DNA of 64,000 nt from Thermodesulfobacteriota bacterium (lineage in GTDB: Bacteria; Desulfobacterota_D; UBA1144; Nemesobacterales; Nemesobacteraceae), in NCBI GenBank assembly GCA_965116075.1, contig OZ220467.1:64191-128190 (forward strand). Direction: 5' to 3'. Positions 5,346-62,335 of this stretch are shown here, piece after piece. The notes under the pieces are model-generated. The model was not told where the DNA came from and did no database searches. It was given only the letters and a program-made list of their open reading frames with translations. Position numbers and translations under genes: made by a program. How positions within the stretch are numbered: the first letter of the stretch is position 1; each line of letters opens with the position of its first letter.

Positions 5346-5811
5346 GAGGCATTTGCGCTGTAGTGATTCTTGATGCTGATTTCTTTTGATGATTGTGGAA
5401 CCGTTACGAGTTCATTTCTTTTGTAAATGATAAATTTGTTATTAACTTGAGGTAGTTACACTACAACGATTTTTGGGACTTTTTCCTTGAGGATGACCAG
5501 AAACAACATTGACTTGCTCTTATAGTAGAGGAGAAGATTCTGCTAGCAAATTATAATTTCAACCTATGAAGACACCTTTATAGTGGCATTAAAAATAAAT
5601 GAGATCATCAGGTTATTTGTTTTTTGGAGAATTTTTACAGAGGTTATATCAACCGATTTTAGTGTGGGGTGAAATTTCTGGTTTTTGGCTTACATTAGCC
5701 GATTTTAGGACTTTTTTGGGGTATTTTGGGGGGATTTCTGGGGTAAAAAGTTTTTTACCCTTTCTAAAAACCCTTGATATGCATACATTTTTTGGACAGC
5801 GCAAATGCCTC
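5346..5811 (+). mobile_element. Non-autonomous MITE-like element (MITE-B). It is bounded by the 16-bp inverted repeats GAGGCATTTGCGCTGT / ACAGCGCAAATGCCTC of the IS5-family element at 31473..33469. Flanking 5-bp direct repeat AAAAC.
   Basis: 5640..5811 is the reverse complement of the first about 160 bp of the IS at 31473. 5346..5620 reappears reverse-complemented at 34440..34726. No transposase ORF. Confidence 0.7.
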
Positions 5812-6755: not shown

Positions 6756-7553
6756 ATGAATATTAGTACTTATTTAAAGAAGTTTTTTCCGTTGGGGGTT
6801 CTAAGTCTATTTTTTACATTGGCGCTCATTTTTTCGCCTGTTGAAGGCAAAGCTCAGAACGATGCTACAGAATGTAAAAAAGCTGCAGATGTAGATTCTA
6901 CAAGTGAAACCGAAGTGAAGGCTTTTCTTGAGTGCACAGTAAAATACTACAATAGCACGATTGGGACTGACCCAAAACAGGTGAGACTAAATTTAGCAGA
7001 AATAACCAGAGAATTAAGAGTAAACGATGCTTACCAGAGTAAAAGTGATAATATGTATACAATCTTAATAGAAAACTATAACAATGTTGTTTTTAACCAC
7101 TTAGCGTATCCTGAGTTGTATGGTACCACGCTTAATGAAGATGCTGATACAGACGTTGCGATGAAGTTGAAAAAGTTAATTGTAGATTCCAAGTCGGCAC
7201 CTGCTGATGATAAAATTGCGTGCATAGAATATTATAATGAGACGAAGTATGCCTGTGCGACCCAAGTAATGGCCTTAGCGCCAATGACCATGATAGCAGG
7301 TTTTCATCATGATAAAAATGATGGCGCCTTTAAAAAACCTAATTGCTCGAATTTTGCCAAGCCGGACTTTACTGCTGAGCAGTTATACAAAGACCAGACC
7401 GATGCGAATCTTCGAAAATATGTAAAAAGTTTTATCTCATCAGCTCAAAAAGCGGTGCTTACTAGGATTGAGACGGAAGTTAAAGAAAATCCGAAAATGA
7501 AAGGGTTGCTTACGTCTACAAGCCCAGGGCTTTCTAATTTTTTAGAGGCGTAA
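6756..7553 (+). CDS. Secreted Cys-containing hypothetical protein with signal peptide
   Basis: AGGAGG SD followed by ATG at 6756. N-terminal hydrophobic signal (LGVLSLFFTLALIFSPVEGKA) and low GC. Weak resemblance to Cache-like periplasmic domains. Confidence 0.5.
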   Translation: MNISTYLKKFFPLGVLSLFFTLALIFSPVEGKAQNDATECKKAADVDSTSETEVKAFLECTVKYYNSTIGTDPKQVRLNLAEITRELRVNDAYQSKSDNMYTILIENYNNVVFNHLAYPELYGTTLNEDADTDVAMKLKKLIVDSKSAPADDKIACIEYYNETKYACATQVMALAPMTMIAGFHHDKNDGAFKKPNCSNFAKPDFTAEQLYKDQTDANLRKYVKSFISSAQKAVLTRIETEVKENPKMKGLLTSTSPGLSNFLEA

Positions 7554-7950
7554 GTCGTTGATATTACCGAGTATATCTTTTCAAAGAGAGTTTTGCATCT
7601 TAGAGGTTGCCACTACGTCATGGAGAGAAATTAGAGACTCATTTGTCTTCCCTTTCTAGCGGACATGTAGAAGAATTAGGCTCGGTTTCAGTTCTTCGTA
7701 AGTTTTTTCTTATAACAAACTCTTCTGAATTATAATCTGCGGAGTTGGATATGTAGGGAGAATATATCCAAGGTAGTACATTGTCATTTGGGGATTTGAG
7801 AAAACAGTGAAGTAATATTAGTACGTTATAATCCGGATATTCCAACAGAGATATTAAGTCACAATTCGGTTTCTTCGTTGTTAGATTTCGATCTGGACGT
7901 TACAAATTTAGTTCTGGCTATTTAATGTTTGTTATGGTATGGTGTAGATC

Positions 7951-9735
7951 ATGAGTAGACAGATGTCTCAGGATAATAAGATTGATCTGCACGCGGTCAC
8001 AGTACGTCCTACCTATGGGGAACAGGAGCGTCGTCACTGGGACCATTTAGTCAGACTACATCACTATCTTCCATTCCATCGCGTGTTCGGCAAGGGATTG
8101 CGTCATGTAGCGGAAGTTGGGTCGCGTTGGGTCGCGCTTATTGGTTGGCAGGCAGGCGCATTCAAGTTAGCGGCCCGAGACCGCTGGATTGGCTGGAGCG
8201 CCGAGCAGCAGTTTGGACGCTTGCATCTGATTGCCAACAATGTGCGTTTTGTCATTCTGACACGGCAGCGGGTGGCGAACTTGGCATCGCGAGTGCTGGG
8301 TCTGAGTCTGAGGCGGCTGTCTTCGGACATGCAGACAGCGCACGGTTATCCAGTGTTTCTGGCTGAGACGTTCGTAGATATTTCACGTTTTAATGGTACT
8401 TGCTACCGGGCGGCCAACTGGCAGTCTTTCGGGCTAACGCGCGGGTTTGCCCGTGAGTCTGGAGGGTCTGCGCGGTGGCGCTATCATGGTCAACCCAAGG
8501 AGGTCTTCATGTTTAATCTCGTTGATAATGCTAAAGAAGTATTAAGTCAAGAGGAATTACCACCAGAATGGACCGGTGGGGTTCGTAAGGAGCCTATGAC
8601 GGCGCCACAGTTACGCAGTCTCAAAGATGTTCTAGGTAAGGTGCCTGAGTTCCGAAAGTCTCAAGGTAGACGCTATCCTCTTGTCACCGTGTTGGTTCTC
8701 GCTGTCGCCGCCCGTTTGGCTGGATACCGCGGGGTGTCCGCCATAGCGCAGTTCGCCCGACTACTTAGTCAGGAACAGCTTAAGGCCGTTGGAGCGTTCT
8801 ACAGTCCCAGTAAGAAATGCTACACTGCGCCGGTAATTGGCACCTTCCATAACATCTTCGCAAAACTGCCACCCGACACGCTTGATAAAGCGCTGAACCT
8901 GTGGGAAGCCCGCAAGACCTCGCCCGCAGCGCCGGTGGCGATGGACGGCAAGATGATTCGTGGCGCAGCCAAGCAGACTGAGGGTGGAATTAGAATGATG
9001 GTAGCTGCCCTCGAACATAACACCGGCGTGGTTCTCGGTCAACTAGCAATCAAAGAAAAGAGCAGTGAGATGCTAGTGGTACGCGACCTAGCCAATAAAC
9101 TCGACATTGCTGGTCGTACTGTCACTCTAGATGCGCTGCATGCCCAGCAGGATACGGCGCGCTGTCTGCTGGAAAATGGAGCCGACTATGTGATGACCGC
9201 CATCAAGGACAATCAAAGAACGATCAGCAAGGAAATAAAGGGATTGGACTTTGATGCTGTGCCAGGATGGACAACCGAAGATTATAAACATGGGAGGATT
9301 GAAGAACGGACCTGTTGGGTAGTAGACCTATCCGGTTCTGAGTGGGATGGACATGTAGGCATGCACGGACGGCGTCAAGCCATACGCATAGTCCGCAAGC
9401 GCACTGAGAAGAAGACAGGTAAAACCAGTTGCGAGACTGTCTATGCTCTGACCTCACTTGGCCCAGAGCAGGCTGGAGCCAAGGAGTTACTTGCTCTGGT
9501 TCGCAACCACTGGCACATTGAGAACCGTCTGCATTATGTGCGTGACTTCACCTACGATGAAGACCGTTGTCGGGTATCAAAAGGGTACTTACCGGAAAAT
9601 CTTTCCTGTCTGAGCAACGTTGCCATCGCCATAGTGCGTTGTGAAGGTAGATTCAACTATCTGCCTGAAGCTAACCGACACTATGCCGCCCGGCCTCAGG
9701 AAGCTATTGAACTTATAATGAAGCCGTTGAACTGA
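7951..9735 (+). CDS. ISAs1-family transposase with an N-terminal DUF4338-like extension (fusion protein)
   Basis: The C-terminal about 385 aa carry the ISAs1 signature NHWHIENRLHYVRDFTYDEDRCRV and the DDE_Tnp_1-associated N-domain (RRYPLVTVLVLAVAARLAGYRGVSAIAQF). The N-terminal about 190 aa (IGWSAEQQFGRLHLIANNVRFVIL...YRAANWQSFGLTRG) parallel the DUF4338 protein at 28303..29196. GC is markedly higher than the flanks. Confidence 0.8.
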   Translation: MSRQMSQDNKIDLHAVTVRPTYGEQERRHWDHLVRLHHYLPFHRVFGKGLRHVAEVGSRWVALIGWQAGAFKLAARDRWIGWSAEQQFGRLHLIANNVRFVILTRQRVANLASRVLGLSLRRLSSDMQTAHGYPVFLAETFVDISRFNGTCYRAANWQSFGLTRGFARESGGSARWRYHGQPKEVFMFNLVDNAKEVLSQEELPPEWTGGVRKEPMTAPQLRSLKDVLGKVPEFRKSQGRRYPLVTVLVLAVAARLAGYRGVSAIAQFARLLSQEQLKAVGAFYSPSKKCYTAPVIGTFHNIFAKLPPDTLDKALNLWEARKTSPAAPVAMDGKMIRGAAKQTEGGIRMMVAALEHNTGVVLGQLAIKEKSSEMLVVRDLANKLDIAGRTVTLDALHAQQDTARCLLENGADYVMTAIKDNQRTISKEIKGLDFDAVPGWTTEDYKHGRIEERTCWVVDLSGSEWDGHVGMHGRRQAIRIVRKRTEKKTGKTSCETVYALTSLGPEQAGAKELLALVRNHWHIENRLHYVRDFTYDEDRCRVSKGYLPENLSCLSNVAIAIVRCEGRFNYLPEANRHYAARPQEAIELIMKPLN

Positions 9736-9958
9736 ACGGTCGCACTTTACTCACAACCCCGCCGGATAGCCTGTGCACTGCTCAGGTCTGATACCCTACG
9801 CCTACTGGACGGACAAAGGCTGCGTACACTGTAAGATGAAGCCAAGTGGTACCCTTGTTTCTTGCTAAAACTCTCCATCTGAAGTCCAAATCACAATCTA
9901 AACACTCCAAAACCTCTATCTACCCAACCCTATACAAAGTCCCCGCTACGAAAACTGA

Positions 9959-10612
9959 ATGGTCCTGTCTACAAGCCCTGCAGATAGAGCTGAGTTACTT
10001 GGGCGAGTCCACTCTCTCATAAATAGTTTAGCTACCTGTGTTGCAGATAATAGTTTGAAACATAAAAACGTATACGCTTTCATCATGTCAACAAATCAAA
10101 AGGGCACCGTCTTAGCTAACGGAAACGACGCCAATCTAAATGGTCTTAATTTTGACCTAGAAGATAAAGAGTTGAAAGGAGAGGACAAAAAAGTAGTAAA
10201 CCTGTTCCGAAGCAGTCTGGATAAAAATGGTGACGGTAATCCTGTAGCAGGAGAGTCCGCTCATGTCACCTACAGATGGGACGACCCCCAAAAGAATGGA
10301 GATGAATACGATGGTGACTACCTTAAAGATAAAGTTGTTCCCGGCAATTCAACTAAAAAAGGTTATATTGAAGTTGCTTGGATATCCAAAGCGTTTGAGG
10401 ATGAATACGACAATGTCGAACTACAAAACGCTCCAGTTATTTTCGGTTCGGGATATTATCTCTCCGATCCCCCGGCGACTGGAATGACAAAGGATGATGA
10501 CGACGGATGTGCGCTTGCGGGAACAGAACATACATCTCACAGCGTATTAGTTAATCTATTGCTGATAAGTTCTGTTCTTCTCTCTGTTGTTTTCCTGAGA
10601 AGGCGTGCTTAA
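9959..10612 (+). CDS. sCache_2-like periplasmic sensor domain fragment with a C-terminal GC+TM+RRR sorting-signal-like tail; probably a remnant truncated at the 5' end
   Basis: Cache-like pattern YAFIMSTNQKGTVLANGNDANLNGLNFDLEDKELKG...HVTYRWDDPQ...KKGYIEVAWISK. C-terminus DDDDGCALAGTEHTSHSVLVNLLLISSVLLSVVFLRRRA. No signal peptide or start context. It sits directly 3' of the ISAs1 element. Confidence 0.4.
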   Translation: MVLSTSPADRAELLGRVHSLINSLATCVADNSLKHKNVYAFIMSTNQKGTVLANGNDANLNGLNFDLEDKELKGEDKKVVNLFRSSLDKNGDGNPVAGESAHVTYRWDDPQKNGDEYDGDYLKDKVVPGNSTKKGYIEVAWISKAFEDEYDNVELQNAPVIFGSGYYLSDPPATGMTKDDDDGCALAGTEHTSHSVLVNLLLISSVLLSVVFLRRRA

Positions 10613-27208: not shown

Positions 27209-27502
27209 GAGGCATTTGCACTGTCCAAAATGTATATGCATATCAAGAGGTTTTAGAAGGACATCCGAATAATACAGATAATTTGACCGAGGAATTTAGC
27301 GGTAGTGACTGTGAATGGATTGTTGCGTCTAAAGGTTGATAACTGGACGGAAATCAGCGGCAAATTCCGGGAAAATCAAGAAATTTGACCGTCAAATTAC
27401 TCAAATACGAATCAGTACGAACTGAAACAGTGGTGAACATACGTTCATACGTCCTCATTACGTCAAAACCACTCCCCCAAAAAACCTACAGCGCAAATGC
27501 CC
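27209..27502 (+). mobile_element. MITE-like deletion derivative of the IS5-family element (left 55 bp plus right about 240 bp, no transposase)
   Basis: Begins GAGGCATTTGCACTGTCC... and ends ...ACAGCGCAAATGCC. The internal part aligns with 33225..33469. Confidence 0.7.
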
Positions 27503-27516
27503 TTTCTCGCCAGTCC

Positions 27517-27554
27517 TTGACTTTGTAAGGGGGGGGGGGGGGTAAACTCAAAAG
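27517..27554 (+). promoter_or_regulatory. Conserved promoter-like module TTGACT-TTGTAA-(G)14-TAAACTCAAAAG, with a homopolymeric G tract between the -35-like and -10-like hexamers; candidate phase-variable promoter
   Basis: G run at about 27529..27542. The same architecture recurs at 42976..43012 (G13) and, on the minus strand, at 62294..62335 (G19). Confidence 0.45.
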
Positions 27555-27642
27555 ACTGACTTAAGAATGAGGGTTTTATAGCAAGGTTTTGCCAGATAAA
27601 TATCCATTTATAAATGGAACAACTTATAAGGGAGGTTGTATT

Positions 27643-28279
27643 ATGAAGTTACGCAGTTTATTAGTGATGTTGTTACTGCTCACTGGAGCAGTTTTCTTTG
27701 TAGCTTGTGAGGGCGAGCGAGGGCCGGCAGGTCCGAAAGGCGACAAAGGCGACCCAGGAAAGGACGGTGCGAGAGGGCCAGCAGGAAAGGATGGTGCGAG
27801 AGGGCCGGCAGGCACGAAAGGTGATGACCTAACAGGTGGTGATCCTAGATGCGACCGCAGTAATGGGATAGATGTAGCCGGTGGCGGTTTTCTGATCCAA
27901 GGAACCGATGATGACGATGTTATTTGCGGTAATAATGCTCAAAACGAAATTAGAGCTCAAGACGGTGATGATGTTGTTTACGCCGGCGCCGGAATGGACA
28001 AACTAGTAGGTGGTGCTGGTGATGACACGCTTTATGGTGAAGCTGGGAATGATTTTTTCTTCGTTCTGAATGAAACCGGCACTAATAAATTGGTTGGTGG
28101 GGACGGGTGGGATATGTTAGTGTTCGCTTCTGATGATCCAAATAGGCACGACATTACTCTTCCTGACGGCCACTATGCTGTTAGTCTTGACAACTTACAG
28201 ACCGAAACCATAACCTTTGATCTTTCCTCGGGGAGTTTTGACGGTACTTCCTTTGAAACTGGAACATTTGCGTTTGAAG
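27643..28279 (+). pseudogene. Collagen-like/RTX-repeat lipoprotein paralog, fragment 1 of 3, interrupted by an IS66-family insertion
   Basis: SD AAGGGAGG plus ATG. Signal/lipobox MKLRSLLVMLLLLTGAVFFVAC. G-X-Y repeats GERGPAGPKGDKGDPGKDGARGPAGKDGARGPAGTKGDD. RTX nonapeptides GGAGDDTLYG. The reading frame continues at 31201 once the IS is removed. Confidence 0.75.
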
Positions 28280-28302
28280 GTAAGCGTTCGTTCAAGGGGT
28301 GT

Positions 28303-29196
28303 TTATAGGGGGTTTGAGCGATTGAGGATTTGTCTCCAATTCCTGTGAAGCGGTCGTAGCCAAATGTCCTTTTTGGGTTTATCGCATCGGTTGTAACGAT
28401 CGTAGCGGCCACGCCCCTGTGTAGTTCCAACGCGTATCCATCCAGAAGCCCGGTATACGGTGCCTGTATATGTCGGAATTTGTACAAACGTCTCAATAAG
28501 CACAGGTGTGAAGTTGTATCGTTGCTTCCAATCCTTGGGCAAGCGGCGACAGACTACCGAGAGAATGTGTGACCCAAGATTGGGTATCTGTATCCATGGA
28601 AGAATCAGGAATCTGGGGTTGTCGATAACCAACGGTAAATTCTTTTCACGTTGCTCGGATGTCCATCCTATGAAGGTGTCACGCGGCGCAAGTCTCCATG
28701 CGGCGGTGGAGAACCCTAGCATGGCCAGCGGCGAACCGTGGCGGTCGCGCACTGCGTAGCGCATCTGAGCCCCGACTAATGTCTTATAACCTAAGTAGTG
28801 ATAACGAGCTACAAACTCGTTCCATAGTTTGCCTTGCCTAGTGCCACTGACAACAGTGTGAACCTGTAGTGGACGGACTTCGTCAAGGGTCTTGGGAACC
28901 GGTAGCATAGGCGGTTCGGTGTCCACTCCAAAGACAATAGGCTTGGCTCGGGGCGACACTCGGGTGGGTGTCGGTAACTTGATGATGCCATCCCTATGCA
29001 TGGATAGCATGGTAACTCTGGCCGTCATATCCTTGAGTCCGCCATCGGGCTTGTACCACCCAATACGTCTGCAAAACTCTCTGGACAGAGCAGTCCGGTT
29101 GAGCCGCTCGGGCCCGGCTATCAAAGCGCGTAGCAGTTTCATCTCCGCAGTCGTGAACTCACGCCCGTAGTAGCGGCACTCAACCTCGTCGCTCAT
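28303..29196 (-). CDS. DUF4338-domain protein with an N-terminal putative winged-helix region, encoded inside the IS66-family element downstream of the transposase
   Basis: IGWTSEQREKNLPLVIDNPRFLILPWIQIPNLGSHILS...YRASGWIRVGTTQG. Its start overlaps the transposase stop by 4 nt. Confidence 0.75.
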   Translation of the reverse strand: MSDEVECRYYGREFTTAEMKLLRALIAGPERLNRTALSREFCRRIGWYKPDGGLKDMTARVTMLSMHRDGIIKLPTPTRVSPRAKPIVFGVDTEPPMLPVPKTLDEVRPLQVHTVVSGTRQGKLWNEFVARYHYLGYKTLVGAQMRYAVRDRHGSPLAMLGFSTAAWRLAPRDTFIGWTSEQREKNLPLVIDNPRFLILPWIQIPNLGSHILSVVCRRLPKDWKQRYNFTPVLIETFVQIPTYTGTVYRASGWIRVGTTQGRGRYDRYNRCDKPKKDIWLRPLHRNWRQILNRSNPL

Positions 29197-31200: not shown

Positions 31201-31472
31201 GCATTGAGGACCTTTTCGTAGGTTACGGAGATGACACGATTACCGGAAACGACGAAGACAACTACATTAGGGCGGAGGGAGGAAACAACACTATCAACGG
31301 AAAAGCAGGCGACGATTTAATCCTCGGTGGTGAAGGAGACGATACCATTAACGCAGGGGCTGGCGACGATGTTTTTGACGGATGGGGAGGCAGTGATGTT
31401 CTCACTGGAGGCGCGGGAGCGGATATCTTTATTATTCAATATTCTGCCTCGCCCTCTGTTGGGATTATTAAA
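31201..31472 (+). pseudogene. Collagen-like/RTX-repeat lipoprotein paralog, fragment 2 of 3 (between the IS66 and IS5 insertions)
   Basis: Translates in frame as GIEDLFVGYGDDTITGNDEDNYIRAEGGNNTINGKAGDDLILGGEGDDTINAGAGDDVFDGWGGSDVLTGGAGADIFIIQ..., collinear with residues about 245-330 of the intact paralog. Confidence 0.7.
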
Positions 31473-33469
31473 GAGGCATTTGCGCTGTCCAAAAGATGTA
31501 TGTATATCAAGGGTTTTTAGAAGGGGTAAAAAACTTTTTACCCCAAAAATACCCCAAAAAAGCCCTAAAATCGGCTAATGTAAGCCAAAAACCACAAATT
31601 TCACCCCACATAAACCAGTTGCCGATTTCTCCCTGAAAAACTTGGGAAAGAGATAAATAACTTGCTGATATTACTTGCTTTACATTCTATATCAGTTATT
31701 ATTATTTCTAACATTCACACATTCTCTCTATAAGGAGCAAACAGTTGCTACAAAAAAAGTATTTACCATTCTCTTGGGAACAAATTGATGAGATTTCAGA
31801 CCTCAAACGTCTTGAGTTGGTTTTGGATGCTTTGCCTGATGAAGATATCATTAGGGCTTTGAAAGCTATGCGCAAGAACGGGCGTAATGAGTATCCGGTA
31901 GAACCAATGTGGAGGGCGACGATTGCTGGCGTAGTGTTTCAGCACGAATCCATAGAATCACTGATACGGGAACTGAACCGTAATTCTGAACTACTTAATA
32001 GATGTGGATTCTGTCCCATTCCCATACAACATATTGACAAGTACAGTCTTGAGCAGGATGAAAACGGCGGGAGACCTAAAGTTGTGGTTAAACAATTTCC
32101 TATCTACAGTACGGCGCCTAGCAGTCACAATTTCTCTCGGTTTCTATCAAACGTAGCGAAGTTGGAGCAACGCGACGGTCTGATTTCGAAAATGATGGAT
32201 AGAATGGGAGGAGAGTTGAGAGAATCGCTTCCGGATTTTGGGAAGCATCTAGGATATGACGGTAAGTCTATAGAGAGTAATTCCACAGGGAGAAAGAGCA
32301 ATAAGACAGGAGAGACATCCGATCCTGATGCGGACTGGGGAGTACATACTACGTCTGGGTTTAACTCTGCTACAGGCAAGGCATGGAAAAGCGTAAAGAG
32401 ATGGTTTGGTTACAAGTTGCATGTAATTGCCGATACCAAGTATGAGATACCGGTTGCGATGAGTCTTACAAAGGCATCTGTATCAGAATATAAGGAGTTG
32501 AATCGGATGATAGACAAGTTGTTTGCGCAGAACCCTGAGTTGGTGGAGCGATGCGAATATTTCAGCGCAGACAAGGGTCTTGACAGTGGGTCATTGAAGA
32601 AGAAGTTTTGGAACGAATATGGAACTGACCCTATAATTGGTATCCGAGAGATGTGGAGGGTGGAGTTGGAGAATCAGAACTATATTGCTGGGCAAAAGAT
32701 TATGCGGCCTTTGAGAGAAGATATTAACAACATATTCTACACAGAGAAGGGCGAGGTTTGGTGTCGTTGTCCTATAACCAAGGTAGAAAGTAAGCTGGTG
32801 GGTTGGGGATATGAAGAGGAGCGAGGTACTTTGAAGTTTCGTTGTCCTGCGGCAGCGCATAACCTGAATTGCGTAGGTAGGGAGAAGTGTCACAAAAATG
32901 CGGGTCGTAAGAACAGTGAATATGGCTTATCCATACGAGTTCCTTTGGACAAGGACCCTCGTATTTTTACCCCGACTCCGTATGGTTCAGTAACTTGGGA
33001 GCGGGAGTATAAGCTTAGGAATTCTATAGAACGTATAAACTCAAGGGTTGACAATAGTTTTAAGTTAGAGAGGCATTTTATCAGAGGCAAGGCTAAAATG
33101 ACTGCTCGTACAGGCTTAGCGTTGAGTGTGATGATGGCGTTAGCCATTGGACACATAAAGGCTGGAAGGGCTGATAAGATGAGGTCCCTTGTTTCTGGGT
33201 GTGCTCCTCGGGCTGGATAGGGTTTTTCTCCGAATACTACAGATAATTTGACCAGAGGAATTTAGCGGTAGTGGCCGTGAATGTATAGTTGCGTCTAAAG
33301 GCTGATAATTGGGCGAAAATCAGCATCATATCCTGCGAAAATCAAGGAATCTGACCGTCAGATTGTTCAAATACGAATCAGTACGAACTGAGACAGTGCT
33401 GAACATGCCTTCATACGTCCTCATTACGTCTAAAATCACTCTCAAAAACCTTACAGCGCAAATGCCTCA
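31473..33469 (+). mobile_element. IS5/IS1182-family insertion sequence (2.0 kb). Perfect 16-bp terminal inverted repeats GAGGCATTTGCGCTGT. Flanking direct repeat ATTAAA.
   Basis: Terminal repeats at 31473..31488 and 33454..33469. Excision restores the reading frame of the disrupted gene. It is the source of the MITE family. Confidence 0.8.
31745..33220 (+). CDS. IS5/IS1182-family DDE transposase (DUF772-like N-terminal domain)
   Basis: 491 aa with NGRNEYPVEPMWRATIAGVVFQHESIESLIRELNRNSELLNRCGF and C-terminal ERHFIRGKAKMTARTGLALSVMMALAIGHIKAGRAD. TTG start. Confidence 0.8.
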   Translation: MLQKKYLPFSWEQIDEISDLKRLELVLDALPDEDIIRALKAMRKNGRNEYPVEPMWRATIAGVVFQHESIESLIRELNRNSELLNRCGFCPIPIQHIDKYSLEQDENGGRPKVVVKQFPIYSTAPSSHNFSRFLSNVAKLEQRDGLISKMMDRMGGELRESLPDFGKHLGYDGKSIESNSTGRKSNKTGETSDPDADWGVHTTSGFNSATGKAWKSVKRWFGYKLHVIADTKYEIPVAMSLTKASVSEYKELNRMIDKLFAQNPELVERCEYFSADKGLDSGSLKKKFWNEYGTDPIIGIREMWRVELENQNYIAGQKIMRPLREDINNIFYTEKGEVWCRCPITKVESKLVGWGYEEERGTLKFRCPAAAHNLNCVGREKCHKNAGRKNSEYGLSIRVPLDKDPRIFTPTPYGSVTWEREYKLRNSIERINSRVDNSFKLERHFIRGKAKMTARTGLALSVMMALAIGHIKAGRADKMRSLVSGCAPRAG

Positions 33470-33475
33470 TTAAAG

Positions 33476-33726
33476 ACTTTGACTTGACAGAAGACAAAAT
33501 CTATTTCAGAGATTTTCCAACGAAAGCAGGGACTAATAGAGATCTATCCGTTACAAGCGGTCGGATTTCGGTTGGAACGACACCGTTTGTTGAAATACAG
33601 GTGAACAATACAGCAGACAACGACAAAGCGAATAGTATAAAAAATGACTCAACAAGATATAGGTTTGTAGAAGCAGATTTTGATACCGATACAAAAAAAA
33701 GAGTTTACACTTTTACAGACAACTAA
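33476..33726 (+). pseudogene. Collagen-like/RTX-repeat lipoprotein paralog, fragment 3 of 3 (C-terminal)
   Basis: DFDLTEDKIYFRDFP...RYRFVEADFDTDTKKRVYTFTDN* parallels the C-terminus of the intact paralog (DFDLTEDMIYFRNF...YRFVNSSFGPKTRTYTFTDN*). Confidence 0.7.
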
Positions 33727-34102: not shown

Positions 34103-34726
34103 GAGGCATTTGCGTTGTCCAAAATGTGTATACATATCAAGGGGTTTTAGAAGAGTAAAAAACTTTTTACGTAAGCGTTCGTTCAAAGGGGTGTTTATAG
34201 AGGGTTTGAGCGATTGAGGATTTGTCTCCAATTTCTGTGAAGCGGTCGTAGCCAAATGTCCTTTTTGGGTTTATCGCGTCAATTGTACCGGTTGGAGCGA
34301 CCACGTTCCTGTGTAGTTCCAACGCGTATCCATCCAGAGGCACGGTATACGGTACCTGTATATGTCGGAATTTGTACAAATGTCTCAACCCAAGTTTACC
34401 CCCAAAAAGCCCTAAAATCGGTTGACATAGCCTCTGTAAAATTCCCCAAAAAAAATAATTTGACGATGTCATTTGTTTTAATGTTATCATAAAGGTGTCT
34501 TCATAGGTTGAAATTATAATTTGCTAACAGAATCTTCTCCTCTTCTATGAGAGTAAGTCAATGTTATTTTTGGTCATCCTCAAGGAAAAGCCCAAAAAAT
34601 CATTGTAGCGTAACTACCTCAAGTTAATGACAAATTTATCATCTACAAAAAAACCATAACGGTTCCACAATCATCAAAAGAAATCAGCATCAAGCATCAC
34701 TACAGCGCAAATGCTCCACATGCGGT
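34103..34726 (+). mobile_element. MITE-B copy (inverted relative to 5346..5811) carrying a nested about 215-bp fragment of the IS66-like element end (about 34163..34378). It is inserted into a paralog of the small ORF at 44405.
   Basis: Left repeat GAGGCATTTGCGTTGT at 34103, right ...ACAGCGCAAATGCTC at about 34726. The internal GTAAGCGTTCGTTCAAAGGGGTGTTTATAGAGGG... block matches 28280..28500. Confidence 0.6.
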
Positions 34727-41992: not shown

Positions 41993-42267
41993 TTCATTAT
42001 CTCCTGAGCAAATTTAAGGCGGAAATTGTACTGACTATTAGATACAAAGTCAAAAAACTCGCGAACCATGCAAGGAGATTGATTACAAGGAATAAGAGGT
42101 CTTAACCACCAAACAAAGACGCAGGAGAAAATTGCTATAGTTCTTGTTGTCTTTTGTCTATTGATTTCTATACTTGTCAAAATGTTTTATGTTTTAAGTA
42201 CTCTTTTATTTCCTTAGTAGTTACTGTCTTGATCATAATTGGGGACAAATAAATACTTTAGTCTGAA

Positions 42268-42662
42268 CGTAAAAGTTCGTTCAATGGGTGTTTATAGAGG
42301 GTTTGAGCGGTTGATGATTTGTCTCGAATTCCTGTGAAGCGGTCGTAGCGACCGCGCCCTGCGTAGTTCCAACGCGTATCCATCCAGAAGCCCGGTATAC
42401 GGTGCCTGTATATGTCGGAATTTGTACAAACGCCTCAATAAGCACGGGTGTGACGTTGTATCGTTGGGTTCACTCCTTGGGCAAGCGGCGACAGACTACC
42501 GAAAGAATGTGTGACCCAAGATTGGGTATTTGTATCAATGGAAGAATCAGGAACCGGGGGTTGTCAATAACCAACGGTAGATTCTTTTCACGTCGCTCGG
42601 ACGTCCATCCTATGAAGGTATCGCGCGGCGCAAGTCTCCGTGCGGTGGTGGAGAAACCTTTG
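42268..42662 (+). mobile_element. Partial copy (about 395 bp) of the IS66-like element end, including the 3' third of the DUF4338 gene
   Basis: Aligns with 28280..28680. The ORF-track 76-aa fragment ...RLAPRDTFIGWTSERREKNLPLVIDNPRFLILPLIQIPNLGSHILSVVCRRLP lies here. Confidence 0.65.
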
Positions 42663-42958
42663 GACACTAAAGGCTGGAAGGGCTGACAAAATGAGGTCAC
42701 TTGTTTCTGAGTGTCTTAATCGGGCTCCGAATAATACAGATAATTTGACCAGAGGAATTTAGCGGCAGTGACCGTGAATGGGTTGTTGCGTCCAAAGGCT
42801 GATAATTATGCGGAAATCAACGGCAAATTGCGGGAAAATCAAAAAATCTGCCCATCAGATTGCTCAAATACGAATCAGTACGAACTGAAACAGTGTTGAA
42901 CATGCGTTCATACGTCCTCGTCTAAAACCACTCCCAAAAGCCCTACAGCGCAAATGCC
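42663..42958 (+). mobile_element. Remnant of the IS5-family element right end (transposase 3' tail plus right terminal region), abutting the promoter of the intact collagen/RTX gene
   Basis: ...IKAGRADKMRSLVSECLNRA-like tail, then sequence that aligns with 33225..33469 and ends ACAGCGCAAATGCC. Confidence 0.65.
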
Positions 42959-42975
42959 TTCTTTCTCGCTAGTTC

Positions 42976-43012
42976 TTGACTTTGTGAGGGGGGGGGGGGG
43001 TAAACTCAAAAG
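42976..43012 (+). promoter_or_regulatory. Conserved promoter-like module TTGACT-TTGTGA-(G)13-TAAACTCAAAAG; candidate phase-variable promoter of the intact collagen/RTX gene
   Basis: G run at about 42988..43000. The about 130 bp running from this module to the ATG are near-identical to 27517..27645. Confidence 0.45.
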
Positions 43013-43100
43013 ACTAATTTAAGAATGAGGGTTCTATAACAAGGTTTTGCCAGATAAATGGTCATTTATAAATGGAACAACTTATAAGGGAGGTTGTAAT

Positions 43101-44306
43101 ATGAAGTTAGGTAGTTTATTAGTGATGTTGTTACTGCTTACTGGAACAGTTTTCTTTGTAGCTTGTGAAGGGGAAAGAGGTCCAGCGGGCGAAAAAGGTG
43201 ACAAGGGAGACACAGGTGAGAAAGGTGAGAAAGGCGACCCAGGGAAAGACGGAATACCTGGGCCAGCGGGGTCAGATGGGAGAGATGGAGCAGATGGAGG
43301 AGATGGAGCAGATGGTACTCCATTTGGCGATCCGAGATGCGATGTTATCAATGGAATACAGGGGCTATTAGGAGTTGTTAATGGCGCAAGCATTGCTGAG
43401 GGTGCCATCTCTGGGACTGCTGATGACGATGTTATTTGTGGAACTCGGGTTTTTAACTATATACGAGGGCAAGGCGGTGATGATATTGTTTACGGTGGAG
43501 ATGGTGGTGACATACTAGTAGGCGGTGCTGGTGATGATACGCTTTACGGTGAAGGTGGAGATGACCATTTTTTCCTTAGAGCTGAAAGTGGTGCTAATAA
43601 ACTGGTAGGCGGTGAGGGTAAGGACGCTGTTTACCTCGGTGGCCCTCCAACTTTTGGGTTACTTAATCTTGTTACGAACAATATAGGCTTTTTTTGGGGA
43701 ACAGGCTCAATAGTGGTTTCTGCTAATGTAACCTTAGATCTTTCTTCGGGGACTTTAGATGGTGCTGCTAATTCTATCAACGGAAATGGAACGTTTACAT
43801 TTGAAGGCATTGAGGATATTCGGGGCGGTAGTGGTGCTGAAACGCTTATCGGAAACGAGTTAAATAATTTCATCATTGGAAATGGCGGAAACGATACTAT
43901 TAACGGGAAAGCGGGAGATGATACTCTTCTCAGTGGTAACGAAAACGATACTATTGACGGCGGGGCGGGAGATGATGTTATTTACGGGAATCAGGGTGCC
44001 GACACTTTTACCGGTGGCGCTGGCTCTGACATTTTCCTAATTCGTAAAGGCTTTGGGACTAAGGTTATTGCAGATTTTGATTTGACGGAAGACATGATCT
44101 ATTTCAGAAATTTTACAGCAGGCGGGGAAACAATAACCGTTGGGAGCGGTAAGTTGACTGTCGGCGGAACTGAGGTTGTGATACATGGTGCGAACGGTCA
44201 ACCGGATAACACAAAGGCGGGAAAGATAAACAGCGAAAATAAATATAGGTTTGTAAATTCATCGTTTGGTCCAAAGACACGAACCTACACTTTTACAGAC
44301 AACTAA
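43101..44306 (+). CDS. Secreted lipoprotein with collagen-like G-X-Y repeats and RTX (hemolysin-type calcium-binding) nonapeptide repeats; intact paralog
   Basis: SD GGGAGG 7 nt upstream. Lipobox FFVAC. 17 G-X-Y triplets (GERGPAGEKGDKGDTGEKGEKGDPGKDGIPGPAGSDGRDGADGGDGADGTP). Several GGxGxDxUx repeats (GGAGDDTLY, GGAGDDVIY, GGAGSDIFL). Confidence 0.8.
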   Translation: MKLGSLLVMLLLLTGTVFFVACEGERGPAGEKGDKGDTGEKGEKGDPGKDGIPGPAGSDGRDGADGGDGADGTPFGDPRCDVINGIQGLLGVVNGASIAEGAISGTADDDVICGTRVFNYIRGQGGDDIVYGGDGGDILVGGAGDDTLYGEGGDDHFFLRAESGANKLVGGEGKDAVYLGGPPTFGLLNLVTNNIGFFWGTGSIVVSANVTLDLSSGTLDGAANSINGNGTFTFEGIEDIRGGSGAETLIGNELNNFIIGNGGNDTINGKAGDDTLLSGNENDTIDGGAGDDVIYGNQGADTFTGGAGSDIFLIRKGFGTKVIADFDLTEDMIYFRNFTAGGETITVGSGKLTVGGTEVVIHGANGQPDNTKAGKINSENKYRFVNSSFGPKTRTYTFTDN

Positions 44307-44694: not shown

Positions 44695-44765
44695 GAGAGC
44701 GGTTTTTTACTCCTTCTAAAACCCCTTGATATACATACACCCGCCCATTAAACAGCCGTAAAAGA
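44695..44765 (-). mobile_element. Degenerate remnant of an IS5-family/MITE left end
   Basis: GTTTTTTACTCCTTCTAAAACCCCTTGATATACATACAC aligns with 5753..5795 (AGTTTTTTACCCTTTCTAAAAACCCTTGATATGCATACAT), but the terminal repeat is degenerate. Confidence 0.35.
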
Positions 44766-46482: not shown

Positions 46483-47102
46483 GAGGCATTTGCACTGTCC
46501 AAGATTTATATGCATATCAAGAGGTTTTAGAAGGGGGTAAAAAACTTTTTACCCCACCCCAAAAATCAGTTGCTGATTTTTCCCTGAAAGACCCAAAAAG
46601 TACATCTGACTACGACCGCTTCACAGGAACTGAAGACAAATCCTTAACCGCTCAACCCTCTATAAACACCCCCTGAACAAAAATTTACGCAAGTTCAGAT
46701 TAGAAAAGCACTTTATCAGATGTAAGGCTGAAATGAGTGTTCGTACACGCTTAGAGTTGTGTGTGATGATAGTGCTAGCGATTGGACACATAAAGGCCGG
46801 AAGGGCTGATAATATGAGGCCACTTGTTTCTGGGTGTCTTCCTAGGGCTGGATAGAGTTTTTCTCCGAATAATACAGATAATTTGACCAGAGAAATTTAG
46901 CGGCATTGACCATGAATGGATTGTTGCGTTCAAAGGCTGGTAATTGGGCAGAAATCAGCAGCAAATTGCGGGAAAATCAAAAAATCTGCTCGTCAGATTA
47001 TCAAATACGAATAGTACGAACTGAAACAGTGGTGAACATACGTTCATTACGTTCTCATTAACGTCAAAACCACACCCAAAAACCATACCGCGCAGATGCC
47101 TC
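46483..47102 (+). mobile_element. Composite IS remnant: IS5-family left end, a short reverse-complemented IS66-like end fragment (about 46605..46680), the transposase 3' tail (about 46690..46855), and the IS5-family right end
   Basis: Begins GAGGCATTTGCACTGTCC and ends ACCGCGCAGATGCCTC. The internal ...LEKHFIRCKAEMSVRTRLELCVMIVLAIGHIKAGRADNMRPLVSGCLPRAG* parallels the transposase C-terminus at 33070..33220. Confidence 0.65.
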
Positions 47103-61644: not shown

Positions 61645-62214
61645 TTACCTTTTTTCACAAACTGAACTGGTAGTTATGCGCATGGTGCTTTCTACTTCTC
61701 CGTTTTCATAAGCCACCAACACATCTCCAGCCGAAGCAACCAATTGACCTGCTTGGTTTATTCTGTAAGGGGAACACACTACGCTATAGGGAATAGCATC
61801 GAATCGGGCGCAGAGCATATTGTCAGATGCACGAACAACCCAGTGCCCGGCAATAGCAGGGGGTTTTGTGCCCACTCTGCATTCATCCCATTGTTCTGCA
61901 GCCCATGCAGGTTGCTCTATGTGGGGGACATAAAAAGTTCCATCAGAATTATAGGTTTCGACATTTGTGGATCCGTCAGAATCTTCGCAATCCCACGTTC
62001 CTACTAGTTCTGTAGGGTGCGTACCACTAGGCAAAGGTTCCACCACTGCAACTGCAGCGCAGTCATACTCTCCAATTGGTAGTTCTTCCAGTACATCACC
62101 ATTATCATCGCCACCATTACCACCGCCAGCTGGTATTTCTACACCATCATCACCTCCGCCACCACAAGCAACAGAAACAAGTGCCAAGCCTATAATCAAA
62201 ACAATCTTTTTCAT
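61645..62214 (-). CDS. Lipoprotein (189 aa) with a Gly/Asp-rich linker, preceded by the same poly-G promoter module as the collagen/RTX genes
   Basis: SD AGGAGG plus ATG. Lipobox LVSVAC, then GGGGDDGVEIPAGGGNGGDDNGD. Confidence 0.6.
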   Translation of the reverse strand: MKKIVLIIGLALVSVACGGGGDDGVEIPAGGGNGGDDNGDVLEELPIGEYDCAAVAVVEPLPSGTHPTELVGTWDCEDSDGSTNVETYNSDGTFYVPHIEQPAWAAEQWDECRVGTKPPAIAGHWVVRASDNMLCARFDAIPYSVVCSPYRINQAGQLVASAGDVLVAYENGEVESTMRITTSSVCEKR

Positions 62215-62293
62215 TTCAAATCCTCCTAGTTTAATGGGCGTAGGAAAACCTTGCTAGACATCCTTCACCTCATATATCATTATATCATTACAC

Positions 62294-62335
62294 CTCTGAG
62301 CTTACCCCCCCCCCCCCCCCCCCTACAAAGTCAAT
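62294..62335 (-). promoter_or_regulatory. Conserved promoter-like module on the minus strand: TTGACT-TTGTA-(G)19-TAAGCTCAGAG
   Basis: Poly-C run of 19 at about 62305..62323 on the plus strand. Downstream (minus strand) are a TATAAT-like element and a conserved AGCAAGGTTTTCC block, as at 27575 and 43040. Confidence 0.45.

Follow-up and report, generated by a model that had tools for sequence, protein, structure and literature searches.

Phase-variable surface lipoprotein families are textbook devices of small-genome pathogens such as Mycoplasma, Treponema and Neisseria. The subject of this work is a gene at positions 43101 to 44306 of a 64,000-nt stretch of DNA (contig OZ220467.1, positions 64,191 to 128,190; hereafter the window) from a Thermodesulfobacteriota bacterium related to Candidatus Dadabacteria. 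The encoded protein combines a lipoprotein signal, a collagen-like segment and RTX-type calcium-binding repeats, and the promoter of the gene contains a long run of G residues. The reading favoured here, with a probability of about 60%, is that the gene is one copy of a large, dispersed and phase-variable family of variable lipoproteins, which are probably displayed on the cell surface.

Among the closest described systems are the vlp genes of Mycoplasma hyorhinis, which are transcribed separately and carry a promoter homopolymer in which insertions and deletions switch the gene ON or OFF (PMC10502178). Similar to Vlp, the present family comprises many lipoprotein genes, in which the 5′ region and the signal peptide are highly conserved while the mature parts diverge. 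The likeness is one of analogy, as there is no sequence homology; Pfam and NCBIfam scans yielded collagen and RTX families only, with no homology to Vlp, Vsa or Vsp proteins. The Vlp tract is poly-A, whereas that of the window is poly-G. The Vlp family consists of about seven clustered genes in a wall-less pathogen, in contrast to the roughly 40 dispersed copies in a diderm, uncultured Dadabacteria-related lineage. Mature Vlp regions consist of simple charged repeats in place of folded domains of the collagen and RTX kinds.

A promoter of closer design is found in tp0126 and tpr of Treponema pallidum and in porA of Neisseria meningitidis. These outer-membrane protein genes carry a poly-G tract between −35 and −10, its length varies within and between isolates, and transcription is best at a 17-nt spacer (PMC7864442). 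The promoters described here share the homopolymer between recognisable −35 and −10 hexamers. They differ in tract length, which is 12-19 G in the source species and 9 G in its sister species against 7-12 G in the pathogens, and in their assembled spacers of 15 nt or 18-24 nt, which are never 17. Switching at the promoters described here is predicted from sequence.

Characterised bacterial collagens such as Scl2 and BclA have Pro enriched in the X position of their G-X-Y triplets and abundant K/D/E pairs. Streptococcus Scl1 and Scl2, Bacillus anthracis BclA and Legionella Lcl resemble the present protein in their unbroken G-X-Y triplets with Pro at X, charged residues and no hydroxyproline, in their ‘lollipop’ arrangement of stalk and globular head, and in a triplet number that varies between copies. 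Where these proteins are held by a C-terminal LPXTG motif or by attachment to the exosporium, the present one is anchored by an N-terminal lipid directly next to the collagen-like segment. Its stalk has only 11-17 triplets in the family, and an RTX beta-roll takes the place of the V domain or C1q-like trimer as head.

The nearest relatives of the head are RTX blocks IV-V of CyaA, the adenylate cyclase toxin of Bordetella pertussis (6sus, 5cvw, 7rah, 7usl), where GGxGxDxUx nonapeptides are likewise gathered in discrete blocks, each with a flanking or capping segment. CyaA is a 1706-residue toxin which undergoes type I secretion by an uncleaved C-terminal signal and folds from the C-terminus on emergence. 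The present protein, on the other hand, has an N-terminal lipoprotein signal, a predicted N-to-C export by Sec and no toxin domain, and would stay tethered. The RTX family has been defined by type I secretion via a C-terminal signal (PMC3034196, Linhartova et al. 2010). No type I secretion genes (ABC exporter, membrane fusion protein) were found among the neighbours (window, 17.6-64 kb; Pfam and annotation of syntenic loci). Because of this and of its N-terminal lipoprotein signal, the protein as predicted is not an RTX protein by the accepted, secretion-based definition.

Domain composition and predicted fold

The open reading frame (ORF) begins with ATG, 7 nt after a GGGAGG ribosome-binding site, and has the following parts.

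43101-44306, + strand: coding sequence (CDS) of the 401-residue collagen-like/RTX lipoprotein, stop codon included, from the ORF and domain matches
43101-43166, + strand: predicted lipoprotein signal peptide (residues 1-21) and lipidated Cys22, lipobox F-V-A-C; nearly invariant in 42 paralogs
43170-43322, + strand: collagen-like region of 17 unbroken G-X-Y triplets (residues 24-74), beginning two residues past the lipidated Cys; PF01391 match, with 9-/18-bp DNA periodicity
43338-43439, + strand: neck between two invariant cysteines (Cys80, Cys113), a candidate disulphide loop; both columns invariant in the family alignment
43431-43634, + strand: RTX block 1 (residues 111-178), eight strands at 9-residue spacing; from Pfam, motif, model and profile
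43641-43730, + strand: hypervariable region (residues 181-210) separating the two RTX blocks; from column entropy, with lower model confidence here
43815-44045, + strand: RTX block 2 (residues 239-315), nine strands at 9-residue spacing; from Pfam, motif, model and profile
44046-44303, + strand: C-terminal cap (residues 316-401; VIADFDLTEDMIYF ... YTFTDN); from the CyaA profile alignment, with a predicted local distance difference test (pLDDT) above 90

The assignment of collagen-like and RTX parts is practically certain. Pfam Collagen (PF01391) matches residues 24-74 with 33.2 bits against a cut-off of 27.2, and HemolysinCabind (PF00353) matches five stretches with 88.5 bits against 23. The canonical nonapeptides number nine and are split over the two blocks. 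Matches in NCBIfam are partial only, to RTX toxins, serralysins and Scl-type collagen adhesins (SclA, SclB, Lcl), and all lie far below the curated whole-protein cut-offs; those to SclA, SclB and Lcl are weak and run through the repeat region. The protein is very probably a lipoprotein. The signal peptide, MKLGSLLVMLLLLTGTVFFVA before the lipidated C, has an early basic residue, a hydrophobic core and the lipobox F-V-A-C, and satisfies a PROSITE-type lipobox rule. The sequence MKLGSLLVMLLLLTGTVFFVAC meets the PROSITE PS51257-type rule (basic N-terminal region, hydrophobic core, lipobox, Cys within residues 15-35), and the lipobox rule is passed by 57 of 59 family members.

An AlphaFold2 monomer model built on an alignment of 42 family members has a mean pLDDT of 82 and a predicted template modelling score of 0.77, with residues 100-401 mostly above 90. 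In the stretches 111-178 and 239-315, short strands follow one another at intervals of 9 residues. The signal peptide and the collagen-like segment have a pLDDT below 50 (residues 17-69), as expected from a single chain. A Foldseek search of the PDB returned as best matches the RTX domain of Bordetella CyaA, in 7rah (E = 1.7e-09), 6sus and 7usl (template modelling score 0.51), followed by RTX lipases and serralysins. With its 9-residue strand spacing, high confidence and CyaA as the best match, the head is thus predicted to be a parallel beta-roll.

The family profile agrees with the model, as a comparison with PDB sequences matched CyaA at E = 1.7e-78. Profile positions 111-358 align to residues 61-300 of 6sus (CyaA blocks IV-V), while positions 24-67 match animal collagens. 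Positions 224-359 span the whole of CyaA block V (5cvw), and the alignment reaches position 359 of 385. Judged by this homology to the C-terminal flank of block V, the C-terminal part does not form a new domain of its own; it corresponds for the most part to the flank or cap commonly seen after RTX blocks, and what is specific to the family is confined to the last 25-40 residues.

Most of this agrees with a sequence-only reading made earlier from the letters of the window. The lipoprotein signal and the RTX repeats in two blocks which it reported are both borne out, and its 17 uninterrupted triplets are exact, in the same sequence as quoted. The low-complexity alternative which it had raised fails, as both Pfam families score above their curated cut-offs, and the structure prediction which it proposed gave the confident beta-roll described above. 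It had also proposed a conserved C-terminal domain of about 100 residues; the conservation and the YTFTDN end are real, but the domain is largely an RTX block cap.

The G-X-Y segment has been compared across 58 family members. In 56 of these, 11-17 uninterrupted triplets run from the same start residue, and in about 790 triplets the glycine register is broken only twice, while X and Y vary. Differences in length are always whole triplets in the family alignment. The X position is occupied by Pro (26%), Asp (21%), Ala (15%), Lys (13%) and Glu (12%), and the Y position by Ala (24%), Asp (22%), Lys (20%) and Pro (11%); charged residues make up about half of the X and Y positions. Because Gly is kept at every third position in 56 of the 58 members while X and Y vary, the segment is more than low-complexity sequence and shows the residue pattern of a constrained collagen-type helix. 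The underlying DNA is a degenerate 9/18-bp repeat, and slippage alone would therefore help to keep the triplet register.

Formation of a triple helix, giving a trimeric collagen stalk, is somewhat favoured by this pattern. The rise of a collagen helix is 0.286 nm per residue, so that 51 residues would form a stalk of about 15 nm.

When the N-terminal module was used to scan metagenomes, five unrelated proteins (L089-L093, JGI contigs) turned up in which a lipobox, ACEG[ED]xGPAG and collagen repeats are joined to non-RTX heads. One of these heads has RCC1-like WCWG repeats and one a CxxCH haem motif, and there is no poly-G upstream. Because the same N-terminal module is fused to other heads in these five proteins, the lipid-anchored collagen stalk may be a reusable module, perhaps a widespread one, with the RTX head particular to the clade studied here.

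The gene family and its poly-G promoters

A homology search returned 57 relatives with the full architecture, in two genomes. The 2.39-Mb source genome holds about 40 family genes (35 cluster representatives, 4 further cluster members and the query), which take up about 2% of it. The window was placed on this 2,386,527-bp contig because its GltX and the truncated product of its second family gene are each 100% identical to a protein encoded there. The sister genome OZ242002.1 (1,980,752 bp; GltX 82% identical) has at least 12, and the next relatives by GltX (65-70% identity) are metagenome-assembled genomes of Candidatus Dadabacteria. In a third lineage (MutS 71% identical) the architecture is encoded by one gene, P0103, which specifies 439 residues with 16 triplets and adjoins mutS (L086, 361-1680). 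In a scan of a genome collection with the full alignment, where the patterns were generic RTX cap motifs, the 1.98-Mb sister genome was the sole true relative. A whole-library profile search with the family alignment is uninformative on distribution, its best 150 matches all being giant generic RTX proteins.

All members have the lipobox, C-E-G directly before 11-17 triplets, the invariant Cys80 and Cys113, and 7-15 nonapeptides; a YTFTDN-like end is common to members in the species of the window. The copies are scattered singly among core genes. Identity among paralogs is 84-91% over positions −112 to +57, which comprise the promoter, the 5′ untranslated region (5′UTR) and the signal peptide, and falls to 44-78% over the remaining gene. 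The most variable segment of the protein is residues 181-210, with an entropy of 2.7-3.0 bits and indels against 0.3-1.9 bits elsewhere.

A second strain (strain 2, assembly ERZ24894574) has two loci syntenic with the window at 98-99% identity, and a second family gene, paralog 2, lies in the window itself. The features of the expression units are as follows.

42976-43006, + strand: promoter of the 401-residue gene, with −35 TTGACT (42976-42981), TTGTGA, G13 (42988-43000) and −10 TAAACT (43001-43006); spacer of 19 nt as assembled
43007-43100, + strand: conserved 5′UTR of about 95 nt with the palindrome ATAAAT-N4-ATTTAT and the ribosome-binding site GGGAGG (43088-43093); 84-91% paralog identity
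44339-44365, + strand: terminator-like hairpin followed by a T run, 33 nt past the stop codon
27517-27548, + strand: promoter of paralog 2, with TTGACT, TTGTAA, G14 (27529-27542) and TAAACT; G14 also in the strain-2 orthologue
62299-62334, − strand: third promoter of the same design, with TTGACT, TTGTA, G19 and TAAGCT; G15 in strain 2
61645-62214, − strand: gene of an unrelated 189-residue lipoprotein (MKKIVLIIGLALVSVAC...) behind the third promoter; no match in Pfam, PHROGs or PADLOC

In both window paralogs the promoter ends about 95 nt before the ATG. A generic sigma-70 scan misses the promoter of the 401-residue gene only because its spacer falls outside 16-18 nt. The motif TTGACT-N5-7-G9 occurs at three sites in the window, where 0.00 are expected from shuffles, and TTGACT-N5-7-G(n)-TAnnnT occurs at 10 sites in related loci besides these three. 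A poly-G promoter of this design precedes every intact family gene examined at loci of strain 2 and the sister genome; in strain 2 the tract is G12 at four of these genes and G14 at two, while the three of the sister species all have G9. The gene is judged to be a monocistronic, self-contained unit because a terminator-like hairpin follows it.

The poly-G motif was found in none of 78 unrelated RTX loci. The third-lineage gene P0103 has a plain TTGACA-N18-TAATAT promoter with no homopolymer (L086, upstream 180-225), which may be the ancestral state before the family expanded. From its presence at intact family genes, its absence at the unrelated loci and its absence at the third-lineage gene, the poly-G spacer appears to go with the expanded family. 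Since the unrelated 189-residue lipoprotein sits behind the same design, the spacer also appears to be a general device for lipoprotein genes of the source organism. In 217 kb from these genomes, 13 of the 21 G/C runs of at least 8 are in a poly-G promoter context, and three more are such promoters broken by insertion of an insertion sequence (IS).

Between the strains, the third promoter differs in pure length, with G19 in the window and G15 in strain 2 (L088, 8710-9395, the counterpart of window 61645-62334) and 211 of 211 flanking bases identical, although an assembly error in the homopolymer is possible. That the G tracts cause phase variation is likely, because the tract sits in the spacer, its lengths differ among paralogs and between strains, and experimental precedents exist. 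The putative phase-variable promoters of the sequence-only reading thus hold up as poly-G spacers (G13 and G14 in the two window paralogs), present in both species.

The 5′UTR is more conserved than the CDS among paralogs, with an invariant palindrome ATAAAT-N4-6-ATTTAT whose centre varies. A possible hairpin pairs ACAACTT with AGGTTGT around the ribosome-binding site. The paralog alignment gave only a weak consensus RNA structure (−8.8 kcal/mol) and almost no covariation, and for this reason a protein-binding site and an RNA structure are not separable here.

The two orthologues of paralog 2 differ at 8 positions in the 100-nt 5′UTR (L087, 9900-10000, against window 27543-27642), at 2 in the 1161-nt CDS and at 3 in the 900 nt upstream. 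The contrast between 5′UTR and CDS points to a short gene-conversion patch, seemingly copied from another paralog. With only 2 differences in 1161 coding positions, the idea that the hypervariable region is still being diversified, for instance by a retroelement, was rejected.

A proposed phase-variable surface family and its rivals

In the proposed mechanism, the precursor would be exported by Sec, lipidated on Cys22 and cleaved, as predicted from its sequence. The mature chain would carry, two residues past its lipid anchor, the 51-residue G-X-Y segment, most likely as a trimeric collagen-type stalk. A neck with the conserved cysteine pair would follow, and then the head, in which two beta-roll blocks resembling CyaA blocks IV-V would bind calcium; the hypervariable loop 181-210 would separate them and the C-terminal cap complete the head. 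Calcium outside the cytoplasm would lock the shape of the head. Each copy would be monocistronic, with its own sigma-70-type promoter in which 9-19 G residues occupy most of the −35/−10 spacer. Slipped-strand changes of the tract would alter the spacer length and turn individual copies up or down, so that the population would display changing subsets of head variants. The likely benefit would be escape from, or altered attachment to, surface recognisers such as host cells or phages. Within this scheme we infer that the chains trimerise, that they are exposed on the surface, that copies switch ON and OFF and which agent selects for this.

The conserved cysteine pair, the calcium requirement of the beta-roll, the hypervariable loop and the contingency-type promoters together suggest surface exposure, for which the odds are about even. 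A role as variable surface adhesin or in interaction with a host or phages, as the earlier reading had it, is plausible.

Several points weigh against a switching surface family. The low-confidence collagen segment of the monomer model leaves the triple helix without structural support, though low confidence is expected of a monomer prediction; for a triple helix that lacks hydroxyproline, 17 triplets are few, and a trimerisation domain was not identified. In this lineage the Glu at position +2 does not tell where the lipoprotein is sorted, and the exposure is deduced from other features. Assembled spacers are never the optimal 17 nt, being 18-20 nt in this species (24 nt at the third promoter) and 15 nt at all three sister loci. 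ON and OFF states are not readable from the sequence. The uniform G9 at the three sister-species loci is not predicted by free slippage, and the paralog 2 promoters have the same length, G14, in both strains. Tract lengths come from assembled sequences alone, where long G runs are error-prone, so that exact lengths are uncertain. The hypervariable region reflects old divergence of paralogs, not an ongoing process, because the strain orthologues are nearly identical there.

Some of these points would suit a periplasmic role, in which the proteins act as struts or envelope scaffolds, lipid-anchored trimeric rods like Braun's lipoprotein Lpp, and the G-rich promoters are a style of the lineage without switching. 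A rod-like segment directly past the anchor of a lipoprotein, an exposure which is only deduced, G9 at all three sister loci and the one orthologous pair of equal length in both strains would all fit. Such a scaffold makes it hard to explain about 40 divergent copies with a hypervariable loop, the pure length change from G19 to G15 at a promoter which drives an unrelated lipoprotein, and paralog tracts that differ from G12 to G14. Copies are also freely lost to IS insertions, and therefore no single copy is essential; this reading is accordingly held to be improbable. An origin as phage-derived or mobile-element cargo, for instance as a tail-fibre-like receptor-binding protein in place of a chromosomal surface-coat family, is still far less probable. 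The weak PHROG tail fibre matches that hint at it (best E = 3.8e-07) are confined to the G-X-Y segment (residues 22-77). The gene is flanked by IS remnants, and the synteny with strain 2 breaks at one of them, but the copies are scattered singly among core genes, the neighbours are housekeeping genes (L13/S9, MlaE, glutaredoxin, TonB-dependent receptor), and the protein has a lipoprotein signal peptide and no PADLOC match.

The stronger competitor leaves the phase-variable behaviour of the family unchanged and questions the stalk alone. The G-X-Y segment would then be a flexible charged linker and the protein a monomeric calcium-binding lipoprotein. The 17 triplets, the lack of hydroxyproline in bacteria, the lack of a recognised trimerisation domain and the low pLDDT at residues 17-69 suit a linker, and the 9-/18-bp DNA periodicity could keep the triplet register by repeat slippage alone. 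Against this, two register breaks in some 790 triplets, with X and Y free, argue for selection on Gly itself, and indels are of whole triplets. The enrichment of Pro in X and the abundance of K/D/E pairs are as in characterised bacterial collagens, the Pfam Collagen cut-off is passed, and the lipobox and collagen module recurs on unrelated heads in other metagenomes. A mere linker is thus considered unlikely, if not remote.

The phase-variable lipoprotein family can be taken further, to a combinatorial switching of the surface coat on the scale of mycoplasmas and spirochaetes, in a small-genome Dadabacteria relative that is possibly an animal symbiont. About 40 trimeric, lipid-anchored collagen stalks with variable, calcium-locked heads would be toggled by poly-G, with their 5′ cassettes homogenised by gene conversion and IS insertion into G tracts pruning the family. 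This fuller scheme is tentative and somewhat doubtful as a whole; if true, it would be the first such system outside the classical pathogens.

No description of the collagen-RTX lipoprotein fusion, of its family or of phase variation in such symbionts was found in open-access papers. Within the literature open to search, no system working on the same principle has been described for the uncultured marine Dadabacteria-related lineage. What appears to be new is that a probably phase-variable family of lipoprotein genes rests on a new domain architecture and occurs in a lineage without reported systems of its kind. Two well-studied modules are joined in an arrangement so far undescribed, a collagen-like stalk two residues past a lipid anchor which bears RTX beta-rolls. 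If the reading is true, contingency-locus biology would extend to environmental or symbiotic bacteria, and the lineage would gain concrete candidates for host- or phage-interaction proteins. Export of RTX beta-rolls via Sec and lipoprotein sorting, as predicted here, would bear on how they fold when the N-terminus leaves first. The family is also a compact, naturally varied scaffold for protein engineering.

Disrupted paralog, insertion sequences and gene neighbourhood

The sequence-only reading had counted two paralogs, one of them disrupted by an IS. The second paralog is present and disrupted, but by two elements and not one, and the genome-wide number of copies is about 40. The pieces of paralog 2 and the IS elements are as follows.

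27643-28280, + strand: paralog 2, piece 1 (residues 1-213 of a 386-residue protein); truncated product 100% identical to database protein P0054
28281-31191, − strand: IS-A within paralog 2, an IS66-family transposase with a DruA/DUF4338-like ORF and 22-bp inverted repeats TAAGCGTTCGTTCAAGGGGTGT; absent from the strain-2 orthologue
31202-31474, + strand: paralog 2, piece 2
31475-33468, + strand: IS-B within paralog 2, a DDE_Tnp_1/DUF772 transposase with inverted repeats GGCATTTGCGCTGT / ACAGCGCAAATGCC and the 8-bp target duplication ATTAAAGA; absent from the strain-2 orthologue
33477-33726, + strand: paralog 2, piece 3 (C-terminal cap, YTFTDN end and stop codon)
42261-42960, no strand assigned: IS debris directly 5′ of the promoter of the 401-residue gene, made up of an IS-A (IS66-type) end remnant (42261-42659) and an IS-B right-end remnant (42657-42960)

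Excision of IS-A and IS-B restores an intact ORF of about 386 residues. The strain-2 orthologue, P0398, is intact at 386 residues with neither element, and the inactivation of paralog 2 is for this reason judged to be recent. The accessory ORF of the IS66-type element (28303-29196, − strand) matches Druantia DruA/DUF4338 (Pfam 139 bits; PADLOC weak) and is IS cargo, not part of a defence system.

Synteny with strain 2 stops at about 42260, exactly at the start of the IS-A remnant, where strain 2 continues with restriction-modification genes. The position of the 401-residue gene accordingly seems to be strain-specific. A DsbA-family protein is encoded at a syntenic locus. PHROG and PADLOC searches found no prophage or defence-system context. 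Both phage origin and defence-system membership were rejected, on PHROG matches confined to the G-X-Y segment and the missing PADLOC match.

Family genes of strain 2 have also been hit by IS elements, in the 5′UTR (L085) and inside the poly-G tract (L083, L085). A third IS type, with a 594-residue DruA + DDE_Tnp_1 transposase and ends CAGGACCA...AGCCCT, lies inside the poly-G of two strain-2 promoters (L083, 7424-9900; L085, 20787-20811), and in L083 it leaves G10 and G12 at its two sides. A copy in the window, at 7527-9967, lies elsewhere and has the 11-bp target duplication TCTACAAGCCC.

The right inverted repeat of IS-B (ACAGCGCAAATGCC) stands 16-17 bp 5′ of the −35 box in 6 of 8 family promoters (window 27488-27503 and 42945-42960; L082, L083 and L085). 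Two different IS bodies lie behind this repeat. It may have come there by repeated targeted insertion or by duplication together with the genes, or it may be a site that has been co-opted. The IS-B remnant as a general part of the expression cassette was rejected, as two paralogs are without it. A further IS-B end is found 5′ of the TonB-dependent receptor gene (46700-47101), and an element of about 460 bp with both IS-B inverted repeats (5348-5809) appears to be a miniature derivative. A repeat of about 38 bp, with 89-95% identity, occurs mostly beside IS ends, at 44702-44740, 31497-31534, 34126-34163, 46509-46545 and 27232-27261.

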